Origin: Protoeuglena noctilucae
Lineage: Eukaryota
NCBI GenBank assembly: GCA_958009085.1
Contig: OY253676.1
Span: 124,001-188,000, forward strand
DNA length: 64,000 nt
Reading direction: 5' to 3'
The notes under the pieces are model-generated. The model saw only the letters and a program-made list of their open reading frames with translations. It had not been told where the DNA came from and searched no databases. Below, one piece after another: positions 11,326-62,782 of the stretch (positions within the stretch are counted from its first letter, which is position 1; the number at the start of each line of letters is the position of its first letter). The position numbers and the translations under genes were made by a program.

Positions 11326-14300
11326 TCAATCCTCGTCTTTCAGCTCCTTTGCCAGCGACCAGAAGTGCTCGCACCCCGCCCCCCTCAGCACCCCCACCGC
11401 GCTTGCCTCCGAGTCCACCTCCAGGGTTCGGAACCCTTTAAATGCAGGCTCCAGTGCCGACCCCTGCCACACGAAACGGCAGCCGTTGCCCTCAGCGGCC
11501 TTCTGGGGGGGTATGGGGGGGGGTGGAGGGCATGTGTGAGACGCGTACACGACGAGACCGATAGGTCGGCACAGTGGAGATGGCCATGCATGGGAGTATA
11601 ACCCTGTCGCATCTGTTGTCGAAGCCATCCAAACATTTGTCATCCAACGCACCATCATTCTTGCCCTCTATGTCCACCACCCTCAACCACCCCCATCCAC
11701 TATCCACCGCGCACGCAATCATCCTGACTCTCTCCCCCTCGTCCGCGTCCTCGCTCTTCACCACTCTCATCATCTCATATAGCCACACTTACCCACTCAT
11801 GTAACCACTCTCATCCACCATGCACTCACTCACCCTGACCCTCTCCCCCTCGTCGGCATCCTCGCTCTCCAGCACCTCCCCCCAGTCAATGCGCTGCTCC
11901 ATGAGCTTGGTGTAGCGGCGGATGCTCTTCATGCAGCCCTCCACCACCACTGCGGCAAGTGACAGGACGATTAGATGAAAGATGGGTGAATGCGAACGGC
12001 ACCACCATGCCACCCCACCCCACCCCTCATCCTCTCATCCAATGCGACATCACATGTACACCACCCACCCCTCATCCCCTCACCCAATGCGAACGGCACC
12101 CCCACCCCATCCCATCCCACACCAACCCATCCCCCCCATCCCATCCCACACCAACCCATCCCACTCCTCACCCAATGCGAACGGCAGCCCCCGTCCTATC
12201 CCAATGCGACATCACATGTACACACCCACCCATCACTACTCACCCAATGCGAACGGCACCCCCATCCCGTCCGGCCCCGCGATGGCCCTCCCCGTGAGAT
12301 GGTTCTGCTCCGCGTTGATCTCCACCTTGAAACGATTGCGCTTGTTGACCAGATTGCCGATCTTGAACTGCAAAGGCAAGGGGGAGGATGGGGAGTGGGT
12401 GTTATGCGCCGAGCCAAAGGGTCTGGTACCGCATGGGGCATTCAAATGCGAACGATGAGTGATGATTCCTAGTAAATGACGTCACAGTGCAATCAAACAC
12501 AGCCCTGCATCCTCACATCCCCACCCCACACTCCACCCCCCTCACCACGGCCACCACCGTCTCGGGCGTCTCGTCGAACATCTTGCGGATCTTCTTCTCC
12601 CTCTTCTGCGATCAGAGATCGGAAAATGAGGACAATAGACTTCATTCACACTTCACTCTCACAGCCCCACAATCCCCATCGCACCCCCACCCGATGCCAC
12701 CCTCGCAGCCCACCCATCCCACCCCTCTCACCACCCACCACCCCTCCCCCCAGCACCCCCCACCCAACCCCACCCACACCCACCCCCCACCCCACAGTCA
12801 CCCCCCCTACCCCACAGTCACCCACCCTATCCCCCCACCCAACCCCCCTCACCTCCGCGGGCGTCAGCATCCTGGCCAGGTTCCTGTCGTTGTGCGCCTG
12901 CTGCCTCTCCGCCATCTGCCGCCGCACTTCGCGCTCCACGGCTGTAGGGTCCGCCGCCGCCTCCGCCCCCAGCACCCGGTGCAGGTTGGAGATCTTAACC
13001 TTGGGCTTGGGGGGCTCCAGGAGGCCCTGCTTGACCAGCTCCTGGGGGAGGGAAGAGGGGTGGGGGGTTGCAAAGCGATTGACCAGGTGCTGAGGGGGGG
13101 AGGGGGGGGGGGAGAGGAGAGGGTTGGGTCCCATCCACCATTCATCCACCCACCATCTCTCACCTGCCTCTCCCTCTCCCTCACCATTCATTCCTCCACC
13201 ATCTCTCACCTGCCTCTCCTTCTCCCTGGCCAGTCTCCTCTGCGTCCTCAGCTTCTTCATCTCCCGCTGCGTCAGCTTCAGTGGCTGGGGGGGGGGCAGG
13301 GGGGCCTCCGCGGGGGGCTCCAGGGGGACTTGGGGGGAGGGTAAAGAGGGAAGGGGGGGGGGGGGGGGTTACTTATCACGGGGAGGGCAGAGAGTGGGGG
13401 GCTACTAGTATGGGGAGGGCGAAAAGATGGGGGCTATTACTATGGGCAGGGAGGGAGGGGTCAAACAGGGCTGATCAAAGCACTGGAATCACCACGCTGC
13501 CACCGCCACGCTACCAGTGTTGCTGTCACCCCCATCCCCATCACCATCACCCGTCTCTCACCCGGGTGCTCCACGTATGCCGTGATTCGCGCCTCGTTGA
13601 TCGCCGCGTCCCCCATTGGCCCAGCCGCGTCGTCGTAGCCGCGCCCCTCCGCCAGAATGCGCGCGTCCCACCACTCCACGTCGGGCACCTCCATGCGCTG
13701 CTGGCTGCGGGGGAGGGAGGGGGTGATGAGGGCGATGGGGGTAGTGAGGGTGATGGGGGTGATGAGGGTGATGAGAGACATGCGTAGTGATGAAAAGGAT
13801 AGCTGGGCAGGCGGGGGCGAGTGGTGTGAGACGACTTTTACCAACCCCACCTCATCCTCACCATCACTCCCCACTCATCTACTATGCCCCATGCACACAT
13901 CCCACCCCTCACCGTATCCTCCTCTCCATCTCCGCCCTCTTCTCCGCCTCCTTCCCCGCCACCTCCGTCTTCTCCGCCTCGTCCTCACGTCTCCTCTCCT
14001 CCTCCAATGCCATCTTGATCGCCTCTTTGTTCTCCAATCGCTCCTGCTTGCGGATCTGACCGCGCAGGGCCTTCACGGACTCCATCGCAGCCTCCTCCGT
14101 CTCGCCTCTGTTGTGAGAAGTGGGGGTGAGGGTGGGGGTGAAGGTGAGGGTGGGGGTGGCAGCGGGGGTGGCAGTGAGGGTGGGGGTGAGGGTGGGGGTG
14201 AAGGTGAGGGTGGGGGTGGCAGCGGGGGTGGCAGTGAGGCTGGGGGTGAGGGTGGGGGTGAAGGTGAGGGTGGGGGTGAGGGTGGGGGTGAAGGTGAGGG

Positions 14301-15205
14301 TGGGGGTGGCAGCGGGGGTGGCAGTGAGGGTGGGGGTGAGGGTGGGGGTGGGGGTGGGGGTGCATGGGGACGTGGCGCATCTTCATGCACGCCCATGATT
14401 GTCGCGTCCCTCATCGGCTCTCACCTGGCCACGGCCCTGTTGAACTCGGCCTGCAGTTGGTATTTGCCACGGTCCACGAACTCGAGCGCCCTCGGCCGGG
14501 AGTGCCGCGCCGCGCGACGCGCCAGGTACCATTCCTCGTCGGCGCTCGGTTGCGGGAGGGCATCCTGAACTGGCGCGGGCTTGGCGCCGGGGGGAGCGGC
14601 CTTGGGGATCTTTTTGAGACGCTCTGCAGCGGGCGGGCGAGGAACGAGATGCTGCGCCGCGGGTGCGGGTCTCGGGGCCAGTACACGAGCGCGGGTGATA
14701 GATAAGAGTAAAATGGTCGATGTTTTGAACCAAGCTGCGGTCCGGCGACGCGGCGCGGGCGGCGACGCACCTGCCAGCTGCTTCTGCAGCTCCAGCGCCT
14801 TCTTGGCCTTCGCGATGGCATCCAGGTCAACGGCGGGCTTCGGTGGAGGTGCTCCGGAACCTCCCGGGGCACTCGACGAGGCGCCGGGCACTGCGGCGGG
14901 GGAGGGGCAGGGAGCGTTGCGCAGCCCGGTCCCACGCGCACCCCGGGTGACGCTTGCAAGCGCGCCTCGCACGTCTAGTAGCGTTTTTGGACGAGATGCC
15001 GACCATCGAGCGCATGCAAGAGCCACGCCGTCCTCCTGGCTTGTCCCGGCAGGGAAAGCATGGCCGGGGCGCCCAGCTACCGGCAGGTGCTCCCCCGCAG
15101 CGCTTCACCTTGCGTGATCACTGGCGCCGTCGCAGGCCCCGATCCCGCTCCAGGCGCGTCCCATCGCGCCCTCTTGCGCCGGGTCCCCTCGGCGGGATCG
15201 GCCAT
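11326..15205 (-). CDS. PRP3: U4/U6 snRNP protein Prp3, multi-exon
   Basis: [95 protein letters not shown] and CRFVWQG. The start at 15205 is inferred. Confidence 0.92.
11989..12265. repeat. Interleaved intronic repeats containing copies of a PRP3 exon-end/donor junction
   Basis: CTCACCCAATGCGAACGGCA at 12079, 12167 and 12239 (the real junction), partial at 11989. CCAATGCGACATCACATGTACAC at 12039 and 12201. Confidence 0.9.
14121..14362. repeat. Intronic minisatellite with a 60-bp unit built from GGGGGT/GAGGGT-type hexamers
   Basis: Unit TGGGGGTGAGGGTGGGGGTGAAGGTGAGGGTGGGGGTGGCAGCGGGGGTGGCAGTGAGGG at 14121, 14181 and 14271, with a half unit at 14241. It lies inside PRP3 intron 14109-14424. 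Confidence 0.95.
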
Positions 15206-15590
15206 CGATGCCCTGAGCGTGCGGCCGCTGGCCCCGCGGCACGGCACAGAGCGCCAGGCCCGTCTCCCCTTGGCCTACCAAACTCAGTCTCCCCGCCAAT
15301 CAGCCAAAGTCGCTTCTGTGGCGACTAGCCCCTCGTGGCACCAAGAAAGCAAATGCGTGGGAATTCCTGCGACTGGAGAGCCTCACAGAAGCGCGGCCGA
15401 ACGCAGGGGCATGCAGAGTCCTTGTGGTCACCCATCTGTGCCCGAGAGGTCGCGTAAAACGCAGAAAGGGCCGAATGGTCCTGCCAGTCCCCAGTGTCGC
15501 CGACACGAGGTGCTTCCGCCGCGCCCCGGGCTCTCCTTCTCCAGTCCCTCCCCGTCCTTTCCGCCTCAAGTGTAGGAAGAGCGTGGGAGG

Positions 15591-16630
15591 ATGGCGAGCC
15601 TTTGCGCGTCGTTCGCTCGCCTCTCGGTGGGCGGCCCAAGGGTGAGGAGGCCTGCGAAACGGTGGCTGAGTTGCCTTATCTGTGTCCTTGAGGCCGGCAC
15701 GGTCTCAGGGACTGCCTGGGCCTGGGGAGACGGCGGACACGCGCCGACGCGCCCTCCCCAGGGCTAGAGCGCCACCGCGACGCGCGCCTGTAGCTCATGC
15801 ACTTCTCACACATGTCTTGCTTGCGCGCGCGACTCCGAGTCTCGGGCTCTTGGCCACACCATTGGCCAGCCTCGTTTATCTGACTCCGCGAGGCCTCCCC
15901 AGCGTCGCGAGGGGGGTGTTTTGCACGCATTCGTCTCCTTACCACCGAATACAACGCGGGAGCAGCCGGGATGCGCGCCTTTCCGCCCCCTTGTCCGGGA
16001 AGACGAGGCAGTCCACCGGACGCGTCGCGTGCCTCTCTCGCAGGCCCTCGCCTCCTCTCGCAACGGCATCGTGGCGTCCGTGCGCGTCGCGGCGGCGCCG
16101 AAGGCCGTGCGCATCGCGCGCGCTGCGGTGGTGGAGGTGGTGGACGGGTACAAGCTGAAGACGCGCAAGGCGGCAGCCAAGGTGCCGTGGCGGCCCGCGC
16201 GTGGCCTTCCGCGAGTCGCTCTCGGCGGAAACACCTTTTGTTCAGTATTACTCATGTCCTGTCTATGCGCGGCATCGATGCGCGCCCGCGCGGCTTTGTA
16301 ACACACGACAGACCGCGTGCCGCCCCACTCGCAGCGCTTCAAGGTCACTGCGACGGGCAAGATCATGCGCCGCAAGCCGGGGAAGCAGCACATCAACGAG
16401 AAGAAGGGGCGGAACAGGCGAGGGCGCGGGATAGGGCCCCCAAGCGGGGCGCGGTGGCTCGTATGCTGCGAGCGGGAATGGCGGTGCTCAGTTTGGTGTT
16501 TATGTAACCGCCCCTGCCCCTCCGCAGGCTCCGGAAGCTGTCGGGCGAGGACCCCGTCTCTCATTCGGACTACAACAACGTCATCTCGTGCCTCCCCTAC
16601 GCGGGCATCAGCAAGCGCGCCCTCAACTGA
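15591..16630 (+). CDS. RPL35: Plastid 50S ribosomal protein L35 precursor (4 exons)
   Basis: Ser/Ala/Arg-rich transit-like N-terminus, then GYKLKTRKAAAK|RFKVTATGKIMRRKPGKQHINEKK..|LRKLS..DYNNVISCLPY. Confidence 0.93.
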
Positions 16631-17099
16631 GGGGTAGGTCACCCTCCTTGCCGGAAACCGCTTTGAATAGAACACGATGTTGTGTGGGGTGTGTTCCGGG
16701 TGGGTTGCGGAGGTGGAGATGTGGCAGTGTGTGGGGCACTCGTCGCTGTAATTGAAAGGCGACTTGTGACGGTGATCACATAGGGGAACTGCGTTCAAAC
16801 ACGGCCGGCCTTGATGAGCGCGGCGTCGATCAAAGTAAGTCCGGGAGAGCAACAAAACGCCCTAACCCCATCTGCCCACTCCACCCGTCACGCTCTCGTC
16901 CCTTCGCCCCCATCACTCCTTTCACCTATTCCAATCCTCTCCCCATCCTCCACACCGCTGGCACTTGGCATCTTTCCACCAACAGCCGCCTCACTGCTGC
17001 CTCACTGGTCCTTCTGCGCTCACTCAGGGCAATGGGAGCGTCACATGACAACCGCCTAACACAGCCGAACCAGCCTTTGCATGCCAGCACGTTCGGCAG

Positions 17100-23653
<6,554 letters not shown>

Positions 23654-24482
23654 GGCAACGACTGATTTGCGCACCTACAAGCGGAGAATCTGAATTATAG
23701 CAAGCCGGCGCGCGTTGGCGGACGCTGCCGCGACGCGATGCCGCGGTACTTCCGGCAACGCATGCGCACTGTCCAGCCAACTCGCGAACGCACCTGCAGC
23801 GTCAGCGCCCAGGCGGCGATGTTCTCCGCGACCACCGCATGGCGGCTGCCTGCGTCCCTCCGCCTGCTACTCCTGCGCGAGGGAGAGGGCACGCGATGAC
23901 AACGTCGTGACATTCCCCTCCCCGCTGGAGCTGCTGGGGCTCTTGCGCCGCGACACCCAGCGGTCCCCGACTTTGAAACCTCTTGCCCTCTCACGAACAG
24001 CCAATCCCCACGCCACAGCTCCCGGCTGGGTGCCCACGCGCCCATCTGCCACACCCCGGAACCCTCCAGCAACATTTCTCCTGCCATAAAAACCGAGGAA
24101 AGATAATGGTGGTAGTAAACCTCTCCGGCCTGCGCATCGGGCCCCGCCTCCTCGAAAAGGACGCAGAAAAGCCCAGCAGAGCCCCGGGGCCCGCTTTAAA
24201 GCAGCGCATACGAGTTCCATGAACGAAAACCTGCCATCGCGGCGCAGAAAAGGGACGCAGAATACCCCGCGGGCCGCAAAGGGCCTCACATTGATGCCTG
24301 GCCCCGATCCGCCGCAAATCGCCTCTCTCCTGCGCTGGCAACCACGGCCCGACCAAAGTGTGCCCCCGAACTCCGCGCAGTTACGCGGGAACTGCGCTTG
24401 CGCCAGACACATGCCCCGAAGTCGGGCGTCAGACCGACACGGTGTTCAACATTGCGCAAGAGAGCCTGGCCATCGCTCGGCT

Positions 24483-34107: not shown

Positions 34108-37100
34108 TCACGCATCGCTGGCCAGCATGCTCTCGAGGTCTGCGATCACGGCTTCGATCCCCGGGCGCGCCTTGGGGTCCGTGGCGGTGCACTTTGCGAT
34201 GAGGGCCGCGAGGGGGGCGGGGCAGCCGGGAGGGGCGGCCAGGGGGGTGGCGACGTTGGGGTCCTTGAGTTTCATGACCTGCGGTGGTTTTGAGGGAAGG
34301 GGCAGTTGAGGGTCGGGACATGCAACTGCGATGGGGCGACGGCACCGACGTGCGACGTGGCAGCGCATGCCGGCATGTTATGCAGATGCGATGGTGCCAC
34401 CCCTCATGCCACCCCTCCTGCCACCCCTCACACCACCCCTTACGCCATCCCTCGCCTGCTGCAGCGTCAGTTCTGCGTGGGGCGCCTTGCCCTCCACCAG
34501 GTGCGAGGCCAGGTGAGCCAGGGCGTAGACGTCAGCGGCGGGGCTCAGGCGACTGGCAAAGAGGACCTCGGGGGGGAGGTGGGAGATGGTGCCGATCTTG
34601 TCTGCGAGTGAGGGGGGAGATGGTAGGGGAGTAAGGTGGGAGATGGCGTCAATCTTGTCCGCGAGTGGCAGTGAGAGAGACTGAGTGGCCCCGTATCACT
34701 CTTTGCATGCACGCTCCCCTTACCCCTCCCTTCACCCCTCTCCCTCAACCCCCCCCCCCCCCCCCCCCCTCTCCACCCCTCACCCGCCGTGGTGCTGGTC
34801 AAGTCCGGGCTGAGCACCCGTGACACACTGAAGTCTGCCACCTTGGCCAGGAAACCCTTGTCCACCGGCGCACCGGCCAACAGCACGTTCTTGGCCTCGA
34901 CGTCCCCGTGGACCACCTTGTTTGAATGCAGGTGCTGCAAGCCACGCGAGGTGTCCAGGAGCACCTGCGTGGGGTGACAGGAACACAATACGTTCAGAAC
35001 TGAGCATTGAGTTCGCCTTGCTCCACAGGTACTGGATGATCTCTTTAATTCCATCTATTCATTTCACCACTGCATTTGTCCCCTCACCTCCCCTGCTTGA
35101 TTACATCGCACACCCCCTCACCTCCACCACCCTGCGCACGTCCACGTGTGCCGCCGGCTCCGTCAGAGTCTTCGGGGACCTCCCGTAGTGCCAGTACCCC
35201 TCCTGAAGGGCGTCCTCCACATCGCCGAGGTCACTGGACAGAGGGGCACAGAGAGACGAGCGAAGGTGACATGAGGCGAGGACGCCGAGTGCCAGTGCAA
35301 GTACCACAGACACAGTGAGAACAACTTAGTAACTGATCCAAGAGAGAGGATTCAAGGGTTTGACATTGGCCACTCACCTCCTCCGTTGCCTCTCCCCTTC
35401 CCACTCACCAGTGCTCCATCACCACCCAGACCTCGTACATACCCGCGCCGTCGCCCACCCCCGCAGAGCCCACGCCCGACCCCGCCGGCTCCTCCCGGCT
35501 GCTCCCCGCCGCCGTGGCACCCGACCCCGCCTCCGCCACAACCGTCGACGAGGTCGACCTCTTACGCAGGGACCCAGCTGCCCCACTGCCACTGCCACTG
35601 CCACCACTGCCATCGCTGCCCATTCCCAGACCCTCCGCCGCCTTCCCATCGGGTGCTGCCCCGGTATTATTGTCCCAGTGATTGGTCGCGTCCACGACGC
35701 TCGCCGCTGTAAGTACCGGCCCCTGCCCCTTTGCAGGCCGCGCCAGGCATGTGTGCGCTCGTACCAGATTAGGGTGGTGCAGCCAGGCCTCGACCATGGG
35801 ACCGTCGCGGGAGGCGGGGTCCGGGGGCAACGCGGCACGCGCCACGATGGCACGGGCCTGGGGGCCGGTGACGAGCTCACCAAAGATCTTCACGGCCACT
35901 GCGGGTGAGGATGGGGCAGGGAGGGTCAGAAATGGACATCTGCATGCAGGCCATCGCGATAATAGTACTAGCGGTGCCTGCACCTGGTCGGGGGGGCGCA
36001 GCAGGTGCAACCCGCAGTAACTGCTGAGGCCGGCAGTGGTTGTTTGGAGGGCTTAACACAGGCAGCTACAGGTCCCTGACGTACCCTGACCCGTCTGGGG
36101 TTCAACCCGGACCGCACCGCACCTTCCTGTCCCTTCCAGGTGCCCCGGTACACCGCCCCGTGCGTGCCGCTGCTGATGTACGCCTCGAGTACGACGTCGG
36201 CGACGGCGGGGAGGGCGCCGCGTCTCTGGAGCCACCGCAGGGCGCGGCGGAAGGTCTCGCCGGCCGCGATGGCGCAGAGGGCGAAGGCAAGGAGGCCGAG
36301 GGGGCCCTGCGTAGTATCGGGTATGTTGCGGGTTAGGCACCGTGGGTTAGGGTGGCGTGGTGCGAGGGCAGCCGACACTGGCAGTGCAAATGCGATTTCT
36401 CATACCATGACCGGTGCAAGAGCGATCAAAGAGTGTTGGGCTCCCCTGATGCCGCAGCCAGTCAGGCAGCGCACCTACACAGTCGCACGCTCACAAGCTC
36501 ATATACCCATGTTGCTCCTGCGCTCACCGCAGCCAGGACGCTCGCGATGAATCGCAGGAGCACCTCCCGCCCCGGTCGCTCCTCGGCCTCATCAGTGACA
36601 CCCTCGCCAGGAGCCCAGGGCACCTCGAGCGTACCCTGCCACTGCAGCGCCATGTCCCGCACCTGCCTCCTGCGCGCGCATCGAGACCGGCGAGATGTCG
36701 GAATGTCGCAACGGGGACTGGCAGAGTTGCCAGGCGTCAATTTGCAAGACGTCGATGTGTCCGGACTGCGCCCTCTTACCCTAGCGCATGGCAGGAGAGC
36801 AGTCACCGCTTACGGGCAAACGTTGGCCAGAACATCCTCACATCATCTGCATTTGACACTACCGAGCTCTCACCGGTAGGCCATGTCGAGCACCGGCGGC
36901 CCCAGTTCTCTCGCGGGGCTCCCTGGGCCGACAGATGGGACGCAGCCGAAGGTGACGTTGACGTACCGAATGGCCACGAACGAGGACCTCTGGACGCCCC
37001 AGTCGAGCACCGTGTAGGACTTCACGCCGGTGCCTAGGTTGTCCAGGCCCTCTGCGGTGGCAACGGGGTGGGGGCAAGGGTGGAGGGTGCGAGTGGGGCA

Positions 37101-45238: not shown

Positions 45239-45320
45239 CCCACATTGCCGGTTCAAGATTCGTTACGGTCATCGCGTCTTTGCTGACAAAAGATTACTGA
45301 CAAAGCCACAAGTCCATGTG

Positions 45321-49326: not shown

Positions 49327-52300
49327 ATGGCCGATCGTGGGCGAAAGGCCATGCCTTCGGCCAACCACATCTTGACGCAGCGGGAGGTCGAGCACAACAT
49401 GGCGCTGCATCACGAGAGGCTCGCGAAGATTGGACCGACACCTAAGCGTTGCGAGACAAGTGCGTGCGCCCGCCGACGCCCCCGGCTATGCCATGAAAGG
49501 CGTGGGGTGCCCGCGAGTCGCTGTCGCTCGCCTCCTGCGCTGATGTCGCTGCGCGCACGAGCGTCCCTCCGTCCCCGCAATCTCGTTGACACAAAGAGTG
49601 CGCACGTCACGTGCCATGACGCCCTGTCCCGTCTGTGGCACGCAGTGACGCACGACATGCCGCTGACCATGACCCTCACGCATGTCAAGACGCGCGCCAA
49701 GCAGCGGCAGCAAGAGGCCGAGTGGCGCGCGACAGTGCACGCGGACAACCTGCGGCTGCTCAAGAAGATGGAAAGGATCGGGACGCGCAAGATCACGGAC
49801 CTCACTAAGCCCGCGAGCTACCGTACCTCCATGCAATCGGTCGCGGCAGCGAAGGGGTGAGTCCGGCACGCTTCGTTCTGACTGCGATCGTGTGCGTGTC
49901 GCGGCTCTTGCGCCTCGGAAGCCAGGGGCGTTCACAGGTAGCCCTGAGCTGCGTACATGAGCGCGTAAACACACCCAACATCTTCCCTCCCTCAGCGTCG
50001 CCATGGACGCCACGACGTACCCTTACATCGACTGCCGCTTGGACAAACCCAACACTCCCGTGCTCGAGGGCCGGCAGAAGGAGCGGCTGCTGGAGGCGCA
50101 CCGCGTGTGGCGGGAGAACCAGGCCATCCTTGAGCGCATCACGAACGCACGCGCGACGAGGGAGCTCACGGTGGTGCGGGCCGGCGCTTGCGGGCGCCAG
50201 GGGTTGTACCATGTTTACCATGTGTACCATGCGTACCATGTATACCATGCGCAGGGTCGCAGAGGCATCAGAGCGTGTCGGGTCTGATCTCGAGCGTCGC
50301 CTCTCTCTTGCCCTGCAGCACCACCTGCGCAACGCGCAAGAGAGCCAGGAGAAGTACGCCAAGATCGCGCGCAACCCGTACGTCTCGACGCTGGAGCGCA
50401 ACCTGTTTGCGACGGCCCGGCCAGGGAGCTCCCGGCCGCAGAGCCCGCCGACCGGGGCGCGCCTTTCCTCCACGGCGCCCACGGCAGCGCTGCAGAGCCT
50501 GCGCCCGAGCACCGCACGGCCTGCCCGGACGCCGCTCGCCGCGCGGCCCGCTTGGGATAGCTCGACAGGTGCGTGGGAGATGCGTTGGGAGATGGCCTGG
50601 GGGATGCGGGTGCCCGTGAGCGAGGGCGGCATGCATGTCTGCAGTCTGCAGGGTTCCGCAGCCGCTGCAACTCACGCAGGGGTGGATCACAACATATAAT
50701 AGGAAATCCTCCTCGTCTGCAGATCCCCTCGCGCGGCCAGTCACGGCCAACGCCGCGGAGGAGGCTCCGTGGCGGCAGCCCATGCCTCTGTACGACCCCA
50801 GCCCATTCAACAGCGGCCGCTTCGAGGGAGGGGCGTTCACGGCACGCGCCGTGGCCAAGCAGGAACGCAGGCACAGGTCAGACTTATTCTAGAGTGCACG
50901 TGTCTAGCGACCATGCATTGGTTGGCACCCGTGCCATCGCTGTCTCCCCTGCCCGGTTGCGATGCCAGCCTCTTGGTCCCCACAGGGACGCCATCCGGGC
51001 CATGACGACGGGGCGCAACCCCATCAACTTCGCCCCCGAGGCCTACGCCGCTCCCACCCGGCCCCTGTCCCGCAACATCACGGAGGGTCCTCCCGAGCCC
51101 GCACCCACACCCTTGGGCTGGCGGCCACCCTCCGGCGCGCCCACCTCCCCGCAGCGCCGCTGGGTCCTGCCGCAAGCCCCGAGAGCGCCGCCGGCGTCGG
51201 CACCTGGGTACTCCCGCCCCTCCGCCCCCTCGGGCCCGCCCCCGGCAAGGGTGTCGGCCTGGCCGCAGACTGCGCGGCAGGTGCCCGTCGAGCGCCTCGT
51301 CACCCGGGACGCCAGCGAGGAGTTCCGGCCCCTGCAGGTGAGCAAAGACGTGACACGGCACACAGCCCTCTGCCCTCACCGCCATGCGACCTCCGCCTCC
51401 CGCACCCCTGCACATGCACTCCTGCCTCATGAACTGCGTGACGAGTGCTCGGCACAAGCGAATCCCTTGAGCCTCTCACTCCCCACGCGTGCTCCTGCGT
51501 CCTCTCTGCAGCGAAGCGGCACGGAGCAGAGTCGGTCGAGCAGCGGGACCCCGTCTGGGGGTCAACCCCCGGAAGCTGAGGACTCGGTGCACATCGTGGT
51601 GACCGCGGGAGGCAAAGAGATCGGGGACTTCACGCTCGGGTGAGTGATGAGTTGGGTCTGCGGCAGCAATAGGCGTGGTTCTCTTGTGATCGGGTGTGAG
51701 CACGATCAGGCTCACCAAGCTGTAGGGCTGACTGCGGCAAAGCGCCTATTCGCATCGTGTTTATTGTCCCTCTTGGTTGCCGATGCAGGAAGTCGTCGTC
51801 GCACTCCCATGACGCCCCCCCTGCCACACCCGCCACACCCGCCGCACCCGCCACGCGTGCCCCGGAGGTCGAGGCGACGCCCGAGGCTGCAGCGTCGACG
51901 GAGCCGCGCAGGGATGACGCGAGCATGCCCGACTCGCACCAAAGGGAGACGGTGACACCGTTTACGGAGGTGGAGCCACAGGCGCAAGTGCCCGAGAGCC
52001 GTGATGCGCCGGTCCCTGCACTTGTGAAGGAGGAGGAGGAGGAGGAGGAGTATGGTGGCGAGAGGTTCGAGGAGCACTCCGAGGGGCAGCGCGTTGCCGG
52101 GGGCGCGGAGGGAGCTGAGGCGGGTTCGGCGGCGGGTGCGGATGGGGAGGGGGCGGAGAAAGGGGCTGAGGCAGGGAGCGGTGGGGACGACTATGAGGAC
52201 GATTTCGAGGGTGCGGGGGGTCATGGGGAGGCGGAGGATGCCAAGCGTCGGCAAGAGATGGCGGCGGTGAAGATCCAATCGCTCGCCAGGGGCCGGCAGG

Positions 52301-54302
52301 GGCGCAAGCGGGCGGCCGCTCGCCGGCATGAGGTGGTCGCACGCAAGCGGGAGGTGGCGGCGGTGAAGATCCAGTCGCTGGCGCGGGGGCGGCAGGGGCG
52401 CAAGCGGGCAGCGCGTCGTCAGCAGGAGTTGCTAGATGCCAGGGCGGCAACGGCGGTGCAGGCGGCGGCTGCGGGGCACCTCGTCCGCAAGAAGACGGAG
52501 GCCCAGCGGTCTGCCAAGGCCGTGGATGCGGTAGATGATGCGGTGGGTGAGGATGGGCCCATGGGCGGTGGGGTCGAGGCGATTGGCATGAGTAGTGCGG
52601 TCATCGGCGATGCTGCGGTGAAGGAGCTGCTGAGCGAGGGAGCCGAGGCGGTTGACGTCGAGGGCTTTGGGGACCCGAGCGCGGGGGAGTTAGGGGATGT
52701 GGCGGAGGTGGGGGATGTGGTGGAGGCAGGGGATGTGGGTACATTGCCGAGCAGGGATGGGAGCGGAGTGGACGGAGGGGCGTCGGACGAGTACGCAGAG
52801 GATTTTGAGGAGCACGGGGAGACTGGGGGAGAGGGGCCTGAGGAATCGGGGGGGGCGCAGGGTGGGGAGGGCGAGGGAGGGGTGTCGAGGCAAGAGATGG
52901 CGGCGGTTAAGATCCAGTCGCTCGCAAGGGGGCGGCAGGGGCGCAAGCGGGTGGCCCGGCTGAGGGAGGAGCGGGCGAAGGCGACAGGCGCTTCGTCGGC
53001 GGTGGGGCAGGCAGGGCCTGGCGAGGTTGGGCAGGAGGCGACTGAGGCGACGGGCGGCGCAGAGGACGATGCGCCTGCCGCACCTGCCGCACAGGCCGGG
53101 GCTGACGGGGACGCCCTGCCGGCGACGGTGTCGGAGGCGCGGGCGTGGATGAAGCGCGCGCAGGGGACGCTGCTGTCCGGGGACCTTCCGATCGCCCTGC
53201 GTGACGCGAGCGCATGCGTGCGGGGGGCAGCGGCCATGGGCGGGGAGGACGACGAGGCTCTGGACGTGATGGTGGAGGCGATGAATGCGATGCGGGACTG
53301 GGTGTTGTCGGCATTCGACGAGGGCGGGGCCTCGCACGCCGCGCTGCTGTGCCACCGGGCGGGCATCACGGCCCCGGCGGAGCTGCTGGCCGAGAGCGGC
53401 GGCGCGGATGGCCTCATCGGGCGCGTCGTGGTCACCGGGGGCGTGCGGCTTCCTGCGGAGGAGGACCTGTCGCTCACTTCCACCATCGTCATTGGGGAGG
53501 AGCCGCCCGTGGCCCTCCCAGGGGGTTTGCCCCACGAACTCAACGTCGTGGAGATCCCGGTGAGCGTCAATTAGCTATACTAGCTATGCCAGTGGTCCTT
53601 GTCTTGAGTGGTCGGCAGGTCGGCAGCGCAGAGGAGTACACGCGTGCTATGCTGTGCATGGGCGGACGCAGAGTCGGGTTGCTTCGAGAGCTCCCTCACT
53701 CCGCTCGACCTCTCCTCGTCTCCTCGGAGTGGTATTCAACTGACTCAAGTGACGCTGATCAATGTGTCGGTCAAGGTGCCCCAGGGTTGTTTTGGAGAGG
53801 TGGGCCTGGAGTACTGCACGGTCCACCAGCCGCCTCCCAACCTCCCCGCGCTCTTCCTGCAAGGTGAGAGAGACTCTCACACTTGGCCCCCAAAACTGGT
53901 CGGGAGCAGCATCTACTTACCTCTCTGCAACGGTCAGCGTGCCTCATGCTTGCTTCTTACCTAGCTTCCTACTTATCTTCACCCTCGCGTCGTGCTGCAG
54001 GGTCCGGGCCAATCCTGCTGGAGAAGTCGTCCATTACGGGGGTGCAGGGCGGGAGCTGGCCCGCGGTGCTGGTGACTGCGGGGGCGGTGGAGATGGCGGA
54101 CGTGACGGTGCAGGGCTGCAGCGGCGCGGTGCGGGTGGCCGAGTCGGGGAGTGTCACAGTAAGGGGCGGCCACGTGACGGGCTGCGGGGCAAAGACAGAG
54201 GCGCTGACGGTGATCGGGGGGCGGATGGCGCTTGAGAACGTGCGCTTCACGGACGGCGGGGAGGAAGCCGTCCTGACCGAGACGATCCTGGCGCCCGCCT
54301 GA
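49327..54302 (+). CDS. Multi-domain protein: N-terminal CFAP97/KIAA1430-like region, Pro-rich linker, acidic region with IQ motifs, and a C-terminal beta-helix-like segment
   Basis: AKQRQQEAEWRATVHADNLRLLKKMERI and RVWRENQAILERI. Phase-consistent GT-AG introns link through to three AAVKIQSLARGRQGRKR repeats. The tail reads AVLVTAGAVEMADVTVQGCSGAVRV. Confidence 0.65.
50205..50249. repeat. Intronic 9-bp tandem repeat (NNTACCATG)x5
   Basis: TGTACCATG TTTACCATG TGTACCATG CGTACCATG TATACCATG. Confidence 0.9.
52253..52950 (+). repeat. Three coding copies of an IQ-motif repeat
   Basis: GCGGCGGT.AAGATCCA.TCGCT.GC..GGGG.CGGCAGGGGCGCAAGCGG at about 52261, 52357 and 52900. Confidence 0.9.
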
Positions 54303-54795: not shown

Positions 54796-57700
54796 CTACT
54801 TGGGGGGGTCCAGGATTCCCTCCATCTGCTGCCGCATCTGCGCCATGGCCGTGACGATCAGATAAGGGTTCTCCAGAAGCTTTTCGTCCCCACGCTCCTG
54901 GGCCGTCTTGACCACCTTGCGGAGGGCCTCACGGTACTGAGGGAAAGGAAAGCGGAGGACGCGTGTAAAAAAGTATTCACTGGACCGTTGACTTCTTCAC
55001 GAGGCATAATGTTGAAGAACAGCCTGCAACCGTTGGATTCGCAAGCGCAGGGTTGGCACCGGGCATCCCCATGCTGCACCCGCACCTGCTCTCCGTACGT
55101 GCGGCGGATGTACCGCTGCAGGAAGTCTGCTGCGTAGAAGCGAACCCGCGCATCTGCGGACACAAAAGCACCCACGCCGTCGTCCCACTGACACGGCACA
55201 GGCCGTCAGCCTCGGACTCTTGAAACCCCTCCCTCTGGCAGACAATCGACGCATCCATGACATCCCCGCGCATGGTTTCCATTTAAAAGCCCCGTCCGCC
55301 CTCGCGCTCGCTTACCCGGGTCCTGCAGGAAGCCCTGGGCGGCATGAACCGCAGACGCGCCACCTTCTGCGCCAGCCCCGGCCCTCATGGGCAGCCCCGA
55401 GCCCCACTTGGCGAGCAGCAAGACGACGAGCAGCAGTCGGGCGTCCTCCGCGGCCGATGCCCACGGCGACCAGGCCACGCTCCCCACGTCACGCTCCACC
55501 CGCGGGCAGGCCAGCAGCCCGCCCAGCGCCGCCTGGTGCGTCGCAAACTGCGCGGGCGACAGTGAATACGTGAGACTCAGTGCGGCGGCGACTGCGGAGG
55601 AAGCGCGGGCCGTCTGCGGGGCCTGAATTCGCTCGCAACTCGCGAATTGCACGCCTTCCCCCGCCGCGCCGCCTCCCCGCGCGCTCACCAGGGAGCACTC
55701 GCCCTGCAGAAAATCGATGATTTCCTGCACCAGACCTGCGTCCACGTCCCGGGCCACCGCGCCCCACAGCTCGGGGGACACCTCGACGAGCTCGCCCGCC
55801 ACGAGCGACCCCCAGCCGCCGGGGTACTCCGGCGCCTCGAGGAAATAGTTGACGGGAGCTGTATTGGGGTCCGCGACGTCGCTGAGCGAGTCGCGGCCCG
55901 CCGCGGAGGCCGGCGCGAGCATCCCGGCCCGGGACGACACGTGGCGTGATGGCGCAGCGTTGGCCGCGTCTGCGCCCGACTGCGGCGTGTCCGGGGCGCC
56001 GGAAGTCGACATGGCGCGCGCGGAGGCGGACGCGGAGGGCGTCGCGGGCGTCTCGGCCAGGAAGGGCAGCTCCTCGCTGTCGTCTGCGTTTTTGTCGACC
56101 AGCGCCGAGAGCAGCACCCTGGACGGGGGGCAAGGGGTGTACCGATGATGCGCATTGCGATAACACGTGACGCTTGGAATCGCGCACGTGGCATTGGGAG
56201 CGCTGTGGCCGCTGCTAACGGTGTCGGGCGAGCGACGGGCGTGGCGGAAGCCGGGTGCATCGAATAGATAGCAACGCGGAGGGTCACACCTGACGCTCCG
56301 CAGGATGGCGGGGAGCGCCCCGTTCACGTGCTTGTACTCCAGCAGCCACCGCGCGCCATGCACCAGCACCTGCATTGATCGAGAGCGCGGGGGCATGGGT
56401 CGGGTGGCAAGGCGATCACGGCACTGCCTATCAAGCTTGCACACGATGGCCCAAACCCGCACTCGCACCAGCCTGTTCAGCACTGCACGCCATGGCATGC
56501 ACCCGCTCCCCCCACAGCCTACCCCCATCCCCGCCTCACCTGCACCCCCTCCCTGCGGCTTTCCGCGGACATGACGTCGCCGGGGAGCGGCACCCGCGCC
56601 TTGCCGTGGCCTACGGGTAACCACGCCCGGACATACACCTCCAGACCTGCAAAGGGAGAAAGCGAGGACGGCAGGGGTGGGCGGACCGCAGAGGGGGTTG
56701 CAAAGCGTGCTGATTACCACGCATGATGTGACTCGGATACGCTGACCAGCGCACGGGCAACGACGGCAGTCAAGGCAAAAAGACAATACATCATTTGGAC
56801 TACCCACCATGTTCTGACGGTGCCCCCGTTCCCCTCCACTTCGCCAAACCAACTGCACCCATCCACTTGCCTTCGACGAGCGTCTGCAGCGCCATGGGCC
56901 CGATGACGCCGCACCGCTGCAGGAGCGGCACGAGCACGCACGCCCGCAGCCGCGTGTCGCAGTCGTCGCGCACGCGGGGAACGTCCAGCCCCGCCGGCCC
57001 GCCGCCCTCGTGCGCGATCGGCACGGGGAGCACCCCGTTGCGCAGCGTGCGCTCCAGCCGCCCGATCTCGTCCCCGCCCAGCGTGCCCCCGAAGCCCGAC
57101 AGGATGGGGACCAGCTTGCGGTCCGCTGCCGCCTCGAACAGCGCCCGCACCCAGACGAGGATTGTGGGGAATGCCCTGCTCAGGTCCTCGGAGCACCGCA
57201 GGAAGAGATCGTCCAGTGCGTCCCATGCTTCGACGGTGGCGCCGTGAGCGCCGCGGGGCTCCTTGAGGGATGAGACTGGGGGGTTTGAGAGGGGGGTGGT
57301 GGTGAGGGGGGAGGGGGGGGGGGGGGGGGGGGTGAGTGAGCAAGGGCGGAGAGCAGCTGTAATTTCTAACCCTATCCTCCACACGGGAAGATTTCGTTAC
57401 ACAGAACATAGATAGAACATAGAACAATGACATCCTGTTACCCCCCACTCTGCTCACCCGTGACTTGCAGGTGGTGTGCGGTGGATTCCGGCTCTGTGGG
57501 CGGCAGCTGCACCAACGCACGCGCGGCCACCTGCATCTCTTGCAAGACCGTCTGCGGGTAGGAGTGGGGCATACGATGACTCGAAATGCAAGATGACGAC
57601 CACATTTGACGAGCGGAGTGCTCGCATCGCTCTGCTTGTTGGTTGCTTCTAAACAATACTTACACCCGCCAACAGCATCATCCTCTTGATCCCCCCTATC

Positions 57701-60700
57701 CATCCATACCAATTAAACTGCACATATCCCCACCACTCACCTCCAGCATCATCCTCTTGGCCCTCGCCAGCGCCGCCGACGCCTCCTCCCCGCCCCCCAC
57801 CCCCCTTGCCGCCTCCTGAGCCACGATCCGCGCGCACTGCCCCACCAGTGTGCCTGGATCGTCCTCCAAAGGGGGAAGCACGCCTGGCAGAGGGGGGCGC
57901 CAGTGGGCGCCGCGGCGGGACGTGGGGTGCGCGGTGGTGCCAAAGAGCATGGTGCTGCGGGGAGGTGGGGTGGGTGGTAGCTGTGGAGCTGGGGCGGGCG
58001 TGTTTGGGCGTGTGGGGGTCGGCAGTGCGGGGTTTGAGAGTCGGGTTGGAAGGGACAGCACAGGATGGGCTAGCTGGGTTGCATAGTAGTGGAGCGAAGG
58101 TCACCTGATGGCCAGCGCGAACCCCTCCTGCGCCATCACGAAGTAGGGCCGCAGCAGCCCCGGGAAATCGTCATCCGACTCAAAGAGCGCCGCCGCCACC
58201 CAGCGGTGCAGGGCCGGGCGAGGCACGCCGCCCACGTCTGTGAGGGAGAGCACGGGGGTGGCGCTGTGGTATGCGATGCTTGGGGCGACTGAAGTGAGGG
58301 AGGTAGCGCTGTGGCATGCGATGGATGGGGTAAGCGGCGTGCGTTGTAGCATGCATTGTTCGATAGGGAACCGGGCGCATGTCAGATCCCGTGCCAGCAT
58401 CGCGTGTCGCGCGCACCTGACGGGTGCTCCAGCCCCTCCCGCATGGCCCGTATCTCGACCCGCTTCAGCACCGCCTCCAATGCCACAGTGAAGAGAGACT
58501 GGCGGACGTCCGCGGACAGCTCCCACCTGGGGGGTGGGGGAGGGGTGGTAAGCGTGAGGGTGGCAGTGAGGGTGGCAGTGAGTACGGTCGTGCATATCTG
58601 CAGTCCCGACCTCCTCTGCTGTCTAATGCTCATCCAGTTAACCCCATTACCCTACCGTGACCCGCAATCACCTGAATCGCTCGGCAATGGCGGGGAGTCC
58701 CCCGAACGCCTGCAGCTTCGCCACGTCCAGCTCCACGTCCCTCCAGTCGCTGGCCAGGGAGGTGGTCCGCGAGGATCGATCCTTGAACAGCAGGTACTGG
58801 GGGGAAGGGGGGTTGGGGGCATGAGGGCGGTTGTGGACAACGCTCGTGCAGACAGTTACAGACCATAAGTGTGGGGGCAACGCAGTTAAGAGTACATATG
58901 CATGATAGACACCAAAGATGTGCATTCGTCGCCTCTGTTGCCCCTCCTCACCAGCGAAAGCCTCATCAGGTCATCGCCTGATCACTATCAGGCACCTCCA
59001 TTCGTCTGCATTGCCCCCTCCTCTCCGGTCTCACCAGTGACAGCCTCATCAGGTCGTCCCTGAGCGCCGGGCTCCACCCCTGCCGGTCGCAGAACCGCAG
59101 GAGGATGGCCAGGGCCGCCATGGGGGCACCCTCACACTTGCTCCGTTGGAACGCCCCGCCCGCAGAGCACAGCGTCACCATGCACCCCAGGGCGCTGGCC
59201 CAGACCTCGGAACTGCGCTCGTCCGTCTGGGGGCGGGGGAAGCGTTATGGGGTTGAGCATATAATGACTGGTTGGGTGTGACTGGTGGCTGGGGTGAGGG
59301 AAGGCCATGCAAGGCTAGGTGGGGTGACAGGGAAGTCCAGCATGGTTGATGCGAGGCAACAGACCACTGGCCTTGCCTCAGTCACCCCACCCTCACACCC
59401 TCACACCCCAACCAAAGCCCCGACCCCCGCCCCGCTCGCCTTGGCAAGCACCGCCATGGCCTCCCACATGAGCGGCCGCAGCCAGTCATGGAAGAGCCCC
59501 GTGAGCCACCCCGCGTGAGCCGCGCCTCCCGCGTTGCCCACAAACAGCGAAGCGGTGGACCCCACCCCCTTCCCCGCCCCGCCCCCGCCCTCCCCGCTCA
59601 CGGCCGACCCGGGGCCCCTCGGGCTGCCCACGCCGCCCATCACGTAGCTGGTGCGCGCCAGCCTGTGCTGCGTGTGCTGGTCGGAGGTGGTGGAGGGCGA
59701 CTGGGCGGTGCGGGCTGCTGGGGCTTGCGGTGATGGCTCCGACCCCCAGGGGGCTTCGATCAAAAGGGCGTGGATGGCGAGGTTGACGATGATGTCGAAG
59801 GCACGCGCGCGCATCTTGTCCTGGGCGCTCGCCAGGCAACGGCTGGGGGGGTAGGGGGTGCGGGGTGGTGGGGGATGGGGTGCGATGGTATGGTGGGTGA
59901 ACAGAGCGGGGGCAGGGAAACACAGGACGCAGAGGTGGGGGGGAGGGGACATGTAAGAATGCAAGTGAGGAACGAGGGGGCGCGGGCCATTTGTAAAAAA
60001 CGTGCGGCATCGACCACGGCGGGAATCGATCGCGGGACCTCACCGGATGATGACGAGGCCGAGGGGCAGGGAGGGCGCGGGTCCTAGCTTGAGCCACATG
60101 TCGATCAGGAGCTTGGAGAGCAGCGACATGGGCACCTGCAGGTTGCCCTCGGGCACGTCGCCCTCGGTGCGGCCCTTGCGACCCACGGCCTGGCAGGGAG
60201 GAGCGGGGGTGGATGGGTGGGTGGGGGTGGTGAGAGAGGGGGGAGCGGGGGTGGCGGGGTGGGTTGGTCACACACAAGAGAGAGCAGAACAGGAGGGTAG
60301 ATGGTCTCAGACAGGAGAGAGTGGGAACAACGAGGTGGGTGGTCAGAGAGCGGTGGTTGCTGACCGCGCCCCACACAACACCACTCTCCACCATCTTCCC
60401 CCATCCAAACACCACCACTCACCTCCGCCCCGCACACCGACTCGACGATGGCCCAGACCTCGGCTGCCGTGGGGATGTCTAAGGGGTCCTGCTCCACATA
60501 GGGCACGTGCGCAAACATGGCGCGCGAGCGCTTGTGCAGCTTTGCCTCGGAAGCGCCCGCCCACGCGTCCCGCCGCTGCTTGTGCACGATGCCGCGGACG
60601 TGAGACGCGAACTCCGCCGCCTCCGCCGTGTGCATCGAGCCTGCAGAGGCGAAGGACGCGAGTGCAATGCATTGAATGCGATGCGCTAGTCGAGCAATGT

Positions 60701-62782
60701 GGCCGACTTGCAACAATTGATTGAGTACACATATGAACCGATGCGAACCATTTGCAAGATCCGCAGTGAGGCATTCGACACGGCCACGCGAGTCCTCATC
60801 GCAGCTCCAGCTGCAGCGTCCAGGCCCTTCCTCAAACCTACCCCACCCCCATCCTCTGCCTCACCCGGCCCGCCGCGCCCCACCCGCCCGCTCCCGCCCC
60901 CGTCCCTCCCGAACGCCCCCATTGACACGCCAGACACCGCCGGAGTCAGGGCGGGCGGTCGGTCCGTGGACCCCATGCGACCGGGGAAGCCCCTCGCAGC
61001 CGCCGCTAAGAACGCAGGCCCCCCGCTCTGGCTCTGCCGGACCAGACCCGACGCCTGGCTGCCCAGCGGCGGCACGGCCATGCTCGATGCCGGGGAGTGG
61101 GTGGCGGTGGGGTACCAGTCACCCGGCGCGGAGGACGGTGCGGTGGCGGGGCCCGGGCGGACCTCGAAGCCCCACCGCCAGCGGAGGAGGTCTGCGGGGA
61201 CATTGTCCAATGGGTCTAAGACCTGCAGAGGGGGGATGGGGTGAGTTGTATTGAGGGGTCCAACATAGACCTGCAACGAGGCGATGGGGTGGGTGTGTTG
61301 GTGTAAGTGTGTTGAGGGCTTTAAGACCTCCAGAGGGGCGCTAAGGGCCGCGGTTGTGGGAGCCATGGCGGGTTGAGCCACTGCGAGAGCGCATGCGTGT
61401 GTGGGTGACTGGCAAGACTGGCCAAACACTGCAAGAACGCCGCTGCCGCCATTCACCTGGCGCCTGCCTCCCCATCCGTTGCTGCGCATCGATGCGGTCC
61501 AGTCCGGCTGTGAGAGGGAGTGAGGGGTGGGAGAACCCCTGGCCCCGCCCGCCAGCCCCGCCGCTCCGTCGGACATTGCCGCGTGGTGGCGAGCGGGGGG
61601 CGGGCCGGGCGCCGGGGCGGCGGCGGCGTCGGGGGCGACGCTCGCGGGGGCACTTGCGGGGATCTGGGCGGACAAAGCGGTGGGCAACAGGGAGGGCATG
61701 GAGGTGAGGGTCACGTCGTGGGCGGTAGCGGCGCGGTCTAAGGGCCCGGAGGCACTCGCGGTGCCCCCCGTGCTGCCTGCCGCCTCTTGCAGGGACTGCC
61801 GGGGTGGAGAGGAGACGCGGGAGGTGCCCCCGAACGAAGGCCTGCGTCGCAGAGGCAGAGCGGACTGGCAGGGTCAGGCCACAGCGCAGCGAGAGGCACC
61901 ATGAGTGATGGTGATGAGCGTGGCGGGCATAGCAATCGTGGTGAGCGTGGCGGGCATAGCGATCGTGGTGAGCGTGGGGGGCACGTGTGATGAGCGTGGG
62001 CATTCAAAGTCACCTGCCCTGCGGCGAGGCCTTGCCGTCGGGCTTGACGACCACCTCGCTCTGATCGACGCCCATCGCGTCCCAGAACGCCAGGAACTTG
62101 TCACTCCTCTGCGGGCGTCAGAGAAGTCAACGCGTGTCAACTGGGGCTGTTGGGCAGGCCGAGCAGAGCTGCCACAGGGGGTGTTGGGCAGGGCTGCTGG
62201 CCGCAGCGACCGGACGGCCAATGCGGATGTTGCGGATATTGTGTCACTGCGACTGCTGCTGATGCCTTGAAAGACAAACTACCGCTGTGACCCACCCACC
62301 CCTGCCACCGCTCGCCTGCAGGGTGGTGAGGACTTGGCGCAGGTACAGCAGGGCGGGGACGCTGCCGGGCGACTCCTTGGGCGCCTCGGAGAGTCCCCAG
62401 GAGACCAGCGATAGAAGCTCACGGAGCAGCGTCACGGAGGGGAAGTGGGCGTGGACCGACCGACGCAGGAGCGCAACGCAGCGGTCCACCACGGCCCAGT
62501 TGCGCGGCTCGTCGCGGGCGCGCCTGCAACAACCCGGAACGGATTGCGATGCGAGCGGTTTCCGTGACTTTCCGGCGGCATTGAAGCGTTCGATTCGCAC
62601 GAAGGGCCAGCGGACCTGATGATCGTTTCGTACGTGGCATCCGTGGTCCTCAGATCGGAGAGGAAGTCGAGAAGGTCCTTCGCCCGCCCTGGCTGCAGCG
62701 ATAAGGGCTCGGGGCTGAACGGCTCCGTGGCCTCGGCGACCGCATGCCGAAGGCGCGGGGGCGGCGTGCCGCGGACCGGCAT
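54796..62782 (-). CDS. CLoG1: CLoG1-like (At3g12590-like) large plant-conserved protein, about 15 exons
   Basis: Recalled similarity at PPPRLRHAVAE..LLDFLS..TTDATY..AVVDRCVALLRR, YVEQDPL..AEVWAIV, LSKLLIDM..RARAFDIIVNLAIHA.LIE, and C-terminal DARVRFYAA.FL..AQERGDEKLLENPYL. Confidence 0.75.
61911..62002. repeat. Intronic 27-bp tandem repeat, about 3 copies
   Basis: GTGRTGAGCGTGGCGGGCATAGCRATC at 61911 and 61938, with degenerate copies at 61965 and 61987. Confidence 0.88.

Follow-up and report, generated by a model that had tools for sequence, protein, structure and literature searches.

This analysis concerns a 64,000-nucleotide stretch of Protoeuglena noctilucae DNA (assembly GCA_958009085.1, contig OY253676.1, positions 124,001 to 188,000 of the forward strand; hereafter the window, numbered from its first letter), in which introns of four genes carry degenerate copies of their own exon-intron boundary. 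We refer to these copies as echoes. The G+C content is about 65% across the window, short exons and introns are densely packed, and the sequence is present in runs labelled as one coded organism, in marine metagenomes and in marine metatranscriptomes. Pfam searches of 134 open frames returned PAP2, the adaptor mu subunit, PITH, PRP3, P-type Ca-ATPase, TCP-1, ketoacyl synthase, protein kinase, methyltransferases, a GPN-type ATPase and an IQ protein; judged by these matches, the genes are ordinary eukaryotic ones. Echoes were found in PRP3 (three junctions), in a SERCA-type Ca-ATPase gene (seven junctions, among 13 modelled introns), in a protein-kinase gene (one) and in an unnamed gene at 54.8-62.8 kb (three). 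All echo features described below lie on the minus strand.

Gene models were built with a purpose-written Viterbi predictor trained on 15 introns whose exact ends were given by RNA contigs (three metatranscriptome runs), on Ca-ATPase tblastn segments and on Pfam-supported frames. The predictor was retrained once only, with an intron penalty of -12, as repeated self-training inflated the set to 891 introns and was dropped. At this penalty it returned 21 genes with 134 introns and recovered 15 of the 15 confirmed introns, which belonged to its training set; once antisense overlaps were removed, 19 genes and 125 introns were left, with a median intron length of 159 nt. The Ca-ATPase model aligned to its homolog P0005 over residues 8-1093 and contains two extra stretches, probably missed introns, both away from the echoes. 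Green algae and plants supply the best homologs of this protein, the five best listed being 41-54% identical, and the organism's own Ca-ATPase protein was absent among the 32 homologs found. In PRP3, Pfam profile positions are continuous from exon to exon (74-120, 122-160 and 162-220; for Prp3_C, 3-35, 40-67 and 90-138), and the same holds for the kinase (Pkinase positions 106-152 and 158-198). In the last gene (54.8-62.8 kb), junctions 57741, 59035 and 61222 were placed by the predictor alone; the name CLoG1 given to this gene in a preliminary description of the window was not confirmed, as no Pfam family was found in its 20 scanned exons.

For each of the 247 junctions, a 40-mer made of 25 exon and 15 intron bases was searched in its own intron. 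Fourteen junctions (about one in eighteen) had a copy that scored at least 14 and exceeded both the 99th percentile and the maximum of the same 40-mer in the introns of other genes; the best match that any of the 247 junction 40-mers made in an intron of a different gene scored 16.5. These 14 are the 12 junctions of the preliminary description plus donors 19669 and 57741. Nine donors and five acceptors are echoed, in agreement with its statement that both kinds of site are copied. The similarity that it reported was confirmed for all 15 of its pairs, and its 12 real junctions all fall on exon boundaries of our model of the gene concerned, with the support of P0005 in the Ca-ATPase and of Pfam continuity in PRP3 and the kinase. 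Echoes lie 46-125 nt from their own junction, in host introns of 168-399 nt. Furthermore, a diagonal scan detected 102 ungapped segments scoring at least 14 at offsets of 20-400, against 15, 5, 1 and 3 at four far-offset controls, and Tandem Repeats Finder (TRF) returned 51 rows in the window, many of them in introns away from junctions. The echoes are real and well above chance, and local duplication is widespread in the window.

Both copies of five pairs (11834/11723, 18136/18012, 19137/19047, 19907/20010 and 20362/20464) were recovered in contigs of X5, a DNA run from a marine metagenome whose sample and study label differ from those of the runs that best contain the window sequence. At these pairs, X5 and the window are identical save for an extra G behind 19141 and two letters in the contig over 18905-19528, and copy number was the same at all five pairs covered in this single other DNA data set. 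Because both copies recur in X5 contigs, these five pairs are not assembly artefacts, and this explanation was rejected for them. A scan of metagenome contigs with a SERCA exon, aimed at presence/absence alleles, yielded 80 loci, the best of which was 44% identical, and thus no close relative; these loci were set aside.

PRP3 carries three echoed donors. At donor 11834 (11702..11875), the echo at 11702-11764 copies the real segment at 11813-11875 at an offset of 111 and includes 42 nt of exon; the local alignment of the 11834/11723 pair is 74 nt long. The echo donor is dead, its GT having changed to AT, and a 22-nt repeat takes up much of the spacer. Both copies lie within one X5 contig, and the junction is backed by the Prp3_C profile positions. 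Donor 12244 (11989..12272) belongs to a tandem array of 3-4 units of 72, 88 and 97 nt, with echoes at 12162-12191, 12078-12112 and 11989-12008 (distances of 72, 160 and 257 nt). Two of these echoes keep a GTGAG donor, the local alignments of 12239 with 12167 and with 12079 span about 50-64 columns, and internal windows of this intron match each other at offsets 88/89, 97 and 161. Donor 13210 (13136..13227) is a pure 46-nt tandem (13210/13164) in which 13136-13181 is followed by 13182-13227. TRF reported it with period 46, 2.0 copies and 91% matches, echo and real donor sites are identical, and the PRP3 profile continues from positions 122-160 to 162-220 across the junction.

Four donors are echoed in the Ca-ATPase gene. 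Donor 18136 (18006..18157) has an echo at 18006-18033 (offset 124) that holds 22 nt of exon and keeps GTGAG; the local alignment of 18131/18007 has a length of 56, and the X5 contig over 17701-18297 covers the pair without a difference. At donor 19137 (19033..19149), the echo at 19033-19060 (offset 89-90; alignment length of 49 for 19131/19041) also keeps GTGAG, and its spacer resembles the sequence beyond the echo (p=0.003). Donor 19669 (19533..19679), absent from the preliminary description, has an echo at 19533-19554 (offset 125) with an identical donor site and a spacer score of 22 against a control maximum of 17.5. At donor 22650 (22582..22674), the echo at 22582-22614 is identical to the real copy at 22642-22674 over 33 of 33 nt, 25 from the exon and 8 from the intron (22650/22590), and the 27-nt spacer is loosely similar to the post-echo sequence (p=0.013). 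None of the X5 pieces listed covers this pair, the neighbouring listed X5 contig beginning at 22645.

Three acceptors are echoed in the same gene. Acceptor 18281 (18268..18427) is part of a TRF array with a period of 72 nt and 2.2 copies (18281/18353), in which echoes start at 18340, where AG is kept, and at 18413, where it is lost; the 18268/18413 alignment has a length of 27, and the spacer similarity gave p<0.002. Acceptor 19907 (19884..20016) has an echo at 19987-20016 (offset 103) with 24 nt of exon and AG kept; the alignment of 19884/19987 has a length of 61, and real copy and echo both lie in the X5 contig over 19643-20478. Acceptor 20362 (20339..20570) has two echoes that keep AG, one at 20441-20477 (distance 102) and one with a weak site at 20536-20555 (distance 191), with alignment lengths of 50 for 20339/20441 and 35 for 20339/20536. 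X5 contig coverage of this region ends at 20478.

Two further observations were made in these Ca-ATPase introns. The window lacks one base that is present both in the echo at 19041-19060 and in the X5 allele, where it appears as the inserted G behind 19141. The extra base brings a strong GTGAG donor at 19136/19137 into frame and gives a protein with KPPRR, as in the homolog; without it, the model falls to a poor GC donor at 19144 and three residues are lost. The missing base reflects either an assembly error of a single base or variation between strains. In addition, short, AT-rich and partly palindromic stretches lie between real site and echo at about 19940-19967 and 19080-19100, in introns that are otherwise G/C-rich; they may represent branch-site regions or small hairpins, among other possibilities.

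The remaining echoed junctions belong to the kinase and to the unnamed gene. Kinase acceptor 34601 (34577..34667) has an echo at 34634-34667 (offset 57) with a 34-nt core (34601/34658) in which AG has become GG; no spacer similarity was detected (p=0.69), and Pkinase positions 106-152 and 158-198 flank the intron. In the unnamed gene, donor 59035 (58947..59055) has an echo at 58947-58972 (offset 83) that keeps GTGAG, with an alignment length of 35 for 59030/58947. Acceptor 61222 (61217..61338) has a 17-nt echo at 61322-61338 (offset 105); it is the weakest of the previously listed cases, with an alignment of 17 nt only for 61217/61322 and a score of 14.5 against a heterologous maximum of 9.5. 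Donor 57741 (57673..57759), new in this analysis, is a weak case as well: exon segment 57744-57759 recurs as a 16-nt exact copy at 57673-57688, and the donor itself is not copied.

A similar copy was found at a boundary without splicing. The last 20 nt or so of the PRP3 coding sequence together with the TGA stop codon (11326-11345) recur in the 3' untranslated region (feature span 11212..11345), at 11212-11231 (distance 114) and, more degraded, at about 11254-11282 (distance 62). The copy at distance 114 is followed by a copy of the beginning of the untranslated region, and RNA contig X10 (10939-11372) spans the whole region without a gap. The presence of an echo in the 3' untranslated region argues against a splice-specific process.

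We then considered the state of the copied sites. Eight of the 11 donor echoes keep GT and score at the 18th-99th percentile of real donors. Among the seven acceptor echoes, three fall within the 31st-40th percentile of real acceptors by score, one is weak and three are dead, such that the site has been lost or weakened in 7 of 18 echo copies. Candidate echo donor sites have their exon-side base at 12172, 12084, 13164, 18012, 19047, 19544, 22590 and 58952, and candidate echo acceptor sites lie at 18353, 20010, 20464, 20553 and 61327. Exon and echo differ by 24 mismatches over 354 sites, distributed 9/5/10 on codon positions 1/2/3. Mismatches over all three codon positions fit a freely drifting echo rather than an exon that changes only synonymously. 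The Ca-ATPase model is gapless against P0005 across the echoed junctions at residues 219.7, 667, 717.7 and 797.3 and at donor 18136 (residue 1010.3), and an unaligned stretch adjoins acceptor 18281 (residue 961.7). Judged by this alignment, use of the outer splice site would give the conserved SERCA protein, and it is presumably the site in use. When the intron penalty was low, the predictor called four Ca-ATPase echoes as micro-exons (18012-18044, 19012-19057, 19954-20010 and 20449-20464). All four vanished at a higher penalty, and three of them could not be accommodated in the alignment with the homolog.

Copies of junctions are no more frequent in the window than copies of other intron sequence. 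A copy in the own intron, scoring at least 16 and above every heterologous intron, was found for 13 of 247 junction 40-mers (5.3%) and for 36 of 708 intron-internal 40-mers (5.1%; Fisher p=0.87). These 36 windows sit in 11 introns, and 16 of them belong to echo families. In a placement simulation, tandem units with the observed offsets were placed at random on the gene models and were regarded as tolerated if they lay inside one intron or spanned one junction with at least 11 exon bases. We observed 14 junction-spanning and 7 purely internal events, that is, a junction share of 0.67, while the simulated share was 0.55 with pooled offsets and ranged from 0.41 to 0.60 (14/21, p=0.19). Since both the junction share and the 40-mer rates match their controls, random duplication followed by a tolerance filter suffices to explain the echoes by count.

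In the 13 events that have a spacer, we also asked whether this stretch, which separates the real site from its echo, resembles the sequence past the echo, and scored the similarity against segments of other introns. Similarity was significant (p<0.05) in 7 of 13 events and marginal (p=0.08-0.09) in 3, with a combined p=1e-8. A clear head-to-tail period is seen at 13210 (46 nt), at 18281 (72 nt x 2.2) and in the 12244 array. These comparisons suggest that most events are whole-period duplications in which the intron-derived part has decayed more than the exon-derived part.

Taken together, these results make it likely that the echoes are relics of ordinary short duplications, tandem or nearly so, that by chance included the edge of an exon and were tolerated, with no special junction-copying process. 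Minisatellites would be born and expand throughout the non-coding DNA of this genome, which is rich in repeats and in G/C tracts. When a unit overlaps an exon edge, the intronic copy would be harmless as long as the outermost splice site stays in use, and the event would survive; duplications wholly exonic, or carrying much exon sequence, would be removed by selection. After birth, the intronic copy would decay free of coding constraint, and its low-complexity, intron-derived part would decay fastest, through indels and secondary micro-repeats. Because the intron-derived part decays fastest, the best-preserved remnant would appear centred on the junction. As to the mutational step, replication slippage, unequal exchange or repair, coupled with such a selective filter, would account for the layout.

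The preliminary description had advanced a junction-centred duplication process that expands introns and leaves spare splice sites, with tolerated random tandem duplications spanning a junction as its null model. Its description of the copies holds: they lengthen introns, leave spare splice sites and in many cases keep the site itself, 8 of 11 donor and 3 of 7 acceptor echoes scoring normally. Its junction-centred mechanism found no support, given the equal rates of 13/247 and 36/708, a junction share of 14/21 against 41-60% expected, and a similarity that mostly covers the whole repeat period, albeit in degraded form. In this window, junction copies are no commoner than other intronic duplications, and the null model is the better reading. 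What survives of the proposed centring is that the exon part is always a short, minor part of the period.

Several observations weigh against ordinary tandem duplication. When the windows belonging to echo families are removed from the control, 20 of 708 intron-internal 40-mers remain (2.8%, in 7 introns) against 13 of 247 junctions (5.3%; p=0.10). The echoed junctions all lie in minus-strand genes (14/166 vs 0/84, p=0.003), which contain 32 of the 41 introns of at least 200 nt, and the events cluster in four genes and are not independent. The intron set comes from a predictor trained on the same window, with 15 introns confirmed by RNA, and the SERCA model still has at least two probably unspliced stretches. 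None of the 15 RNA joints listed, of 43 over 10800-30799 (three metatranscriptome runs), touches an echoed junction, which speaks neither for nor against echo use. No spacer similarity was found for 34601, 57741 and 61222, 3 of the 13 events tested. The exon-derived part measures 6-42 nt, with a median of about 21 and 9 of 14 values between 18 and 25, and always amounts to less than 0.42 of the period, while uniform placement predicts a median of 42-47 nt (Kolmogorov-Smirnov p=4e-5; probability of all being at most 42 nt, 3e-5). Exon 40-mers located 26-65 nt from the junction were never copied into the adjacent intron (0/237 vs 13/247, p=2e-4). Finally, echo and real copy at 22650 agree at 33 of 33 nt, but the 27-nt spacer between them bears only a loose resemblance to what follows the echo; this pair is not explained by one simple recent tandem event and hints at conversion or some other second event, or else at an insertion of copy plus filler.

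The short exon part thus calls for an added assumption if tandem duplication is retained. Selection against long exon-like inserts is one possibility, and short original units with later spacer growth another; the 22-nt repeat in the 11834 spacer supports short original units whose spacers later grew by micro-repeats. The short exon part may also reflect a real junction-proximal bias. This would be expected of a junction-anchored mutational process, in which breaks or stalls at the composition step between exon and G/C-tract intron, or short-tract conversion from junction to echo, make or refresh copies with a fixed 20-25 nt or so of exon plus the splice signal. The clustering of exon parts at 18-25 nt, their minor share of the period, the absence of exon-internal copies and the identical core at 22650 next to a poorly matching spacer all point in this direction, as does the greater resemblance of the farther 12244 echo (distance 160) to the real site, compared with the nearer echo. 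However, the counts agree with random placement, similarity extends over the whole period in most events, and the stop-codon echo has the same short coding part of about 20 nt although no splice junction is present there; moreover, the sample amounts to 14 events in four genes. We therefore regard a junction-anchored process as unlikely. If such a process did operate, junction echoes would make introns grow systematically in this lineage and provide it with a lasting stock of decoy sites.

Patchwork repair, in which double-strand breaks in introns are mended with nearby-templated insertions through template switching during end joining, would leave non-tandem copies and filler. It would account for the 8-nt exon tail of 12244 that recurs about six times in its intron as nested partial copies, for the 22650 and 34601 spacers, which are composed of sub-motifs of the copied core, and for the three events without spacer similarity. 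Conversely, such repair is expected to draw on exon-internal templates as well, of which 0/237 were found, whereas nearly all echoes hold the junction itself with both sides contiguous and most spacers are homologous to the post-echo flank. This explanation appears slightly less probable than a junction-anchored process.

The echoes might also be kept by selection, as decoy or back-up splice sites, as splicing enhancers or as alternative micro-exons. The real-like scores of most donor echoes and of three acceptor echoes would be in line with this, and so would the four short exons that the permissive model makes of SERCA echoes, one of which (57 nt) is a whole number of codons, and the acceptor offsets, 4 of 5 of which are divisible by 3. 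Yet the mismatches fall on all codon positions, the site is lost or weakened in more than a third of the copies, and the homolog alignment has no room for extra segments at four of five SERCA sites (residues 667, 717.7, 797.3 and 883.7), the exception being donor 18136 (residue 1010.3), where the model already holds unaligned residues. Use of the echo donor at 19047 would read into a stop codon, and the 15 RNA joints listed, of 43, gave no support to any echo. Retention by selection is accordingly very improbable. Least credible of all is that the echoes are assembly artefacts, for which the 33-nt exact repeat at 22650 could be cited as it is uncovered by the listed X5 pieces, or target-site duplications of a mobile, introner-like intron element, since five pairs are reproduced in X5 metagenome contigs, no intron family is common to several genes, and the echoes lie 46-125 nt from their own junction instead of at the far end of the intron. 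An introner-like element was rejected directly: among 708 intron 40-mers of the 64 kb, none with an entropy of at least 1.5 scored at least 24 in the introns of other genes, and the between-gene matches that do occur are low-complexity tracts.

The closest precedent for echoes left by tandem duplication appears to be the minisatellite in intron 7 (IVS7) of human F7, a 37-bp variable number tandem repeat described as having a first unit that spans the exon 7 boundary, so that identical pseudo-donors follow the authentic donor (PMC1557585). According to that report, the most upstream donor is used and the pseudo-sites are silent (Borensztajn et al. 2006, PMC1557585). Donor echoes 13210, 12244, 22650, 18136, 19137, 19669 and 59035 share the layout described there. 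As in F7, pseudo-sites match the consensus as well as authentic sites do in 8 of 11 donor and 3 of 7 acceptor echoes, the other 7 copies being weak or dead. In contrast to the F7 case as reported, in which one locus carries identical units of polymorphic copy number, the window has echoes at about 6% of junctions in 64 kb, mostly as one or two diverged copies. Acceptors are echoed as well (5/14), the spacing is 46-125 nt, and silence of the pseudo-sites and polymorphism are described for F7 only.

Other systems described in the literature resemble the echoes in part. Internal tandem repeats at exon-intron boundaries were reported in human genes within segmental duplications (De Grassi and Ciccarelli 2009, PMC2812944), where, as here, boundary-overlapping repeats alter intron structure and can offer alternative splice sites. 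The cases described there are differences between paralogs, often with new introns or with repeats retained in transcripts, whereas the repeats of the window lie inside existing introns and leave the SERCA product unchanged at the level of protein alignment. New introns have been attributed to exonic AGGT proto-splice sites that were duplicated in tandem (Hellsten et al. 2011, PMC3265369; Lehmann et al. 2010, PMC2891723). In that model too, local tandem duplication supplies duplicated splice signals, one copy of which ends up inside an intron, but as described the whole intron is a duplicated exon segment and is new, while in the window an existing intron is lengthened by a unit of exon plus intron. 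With echoes placed 46-125 nt into introns 168-399 nt long, the layout agrees better with the growth of introns already present than with the birth of new ones. Finally, introner elements of Micromonas and other algae are reported as near-identical intron families over many genes (Simmons et al. 2015, PMC4540971). These are likewise marine algae with introns shaped by repeated sequence, but no inter-gene family is found among the window's 125 introns. Our searches of open-access full texts uncovered no genome described as having such copies at a sizeable share of its junctions.

The echoes constitute a natural test set for splice-site choice, in which authentic donors and acceptors are accompanied by near-identical pseudo-sites at 46-125 nt, in an arrangement like that of F7; this set includes acceptors and comes from a genome in which GC donors are found in one third of the confirmed introns. 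They also illustrate a concrete route of intron lengthening, as 7 of the 13 modelled introns of one Ca-ATPase gene carry copies. Furthermore, they are a hazard for annotation, a permissive predictor having turned four echoes into false micro-exons.

The GC donors were seen in 5 of the 15 RNA-confirmed introns, which are of the GC-AG type with 5' ends at 16418, 25144, 26859, 28139 and 28579 and GCGAG or GCAAG donors. This share is far above that usually quoted for plants and animals. In the Ca-ATPase gene, 21259-21431 is the one intron confirmed, from pieces of a single RNA contig. RNA contigs that agree with Ca-ATPase exons at 95% or above continue, at 19204, 19700, 20641 and 21264, into sequence foreign to the window. 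None of these four loose ends was located in the window, and a paralogous gene or a related organism also present in the samples may be their source. Nine of the 11 loose-end strings searched were absent from the window, 8 of these 9 being exon-internal RNA-contig strings, and no exon links were gained.

Two other repeats stand apart from the echoes. The largest tandem array of the window, at 14119-14362, lies in a PRP3 intron away from junctions and is a 30-nt minisatellite of about 8 copies with a 12-nt sub-period. A 96-nt tandem repeat of 1.8 copies was found at 52255-52435 on the plus strand, within the long exon of the IQ-motif gene, and is therefore a coding repeat.

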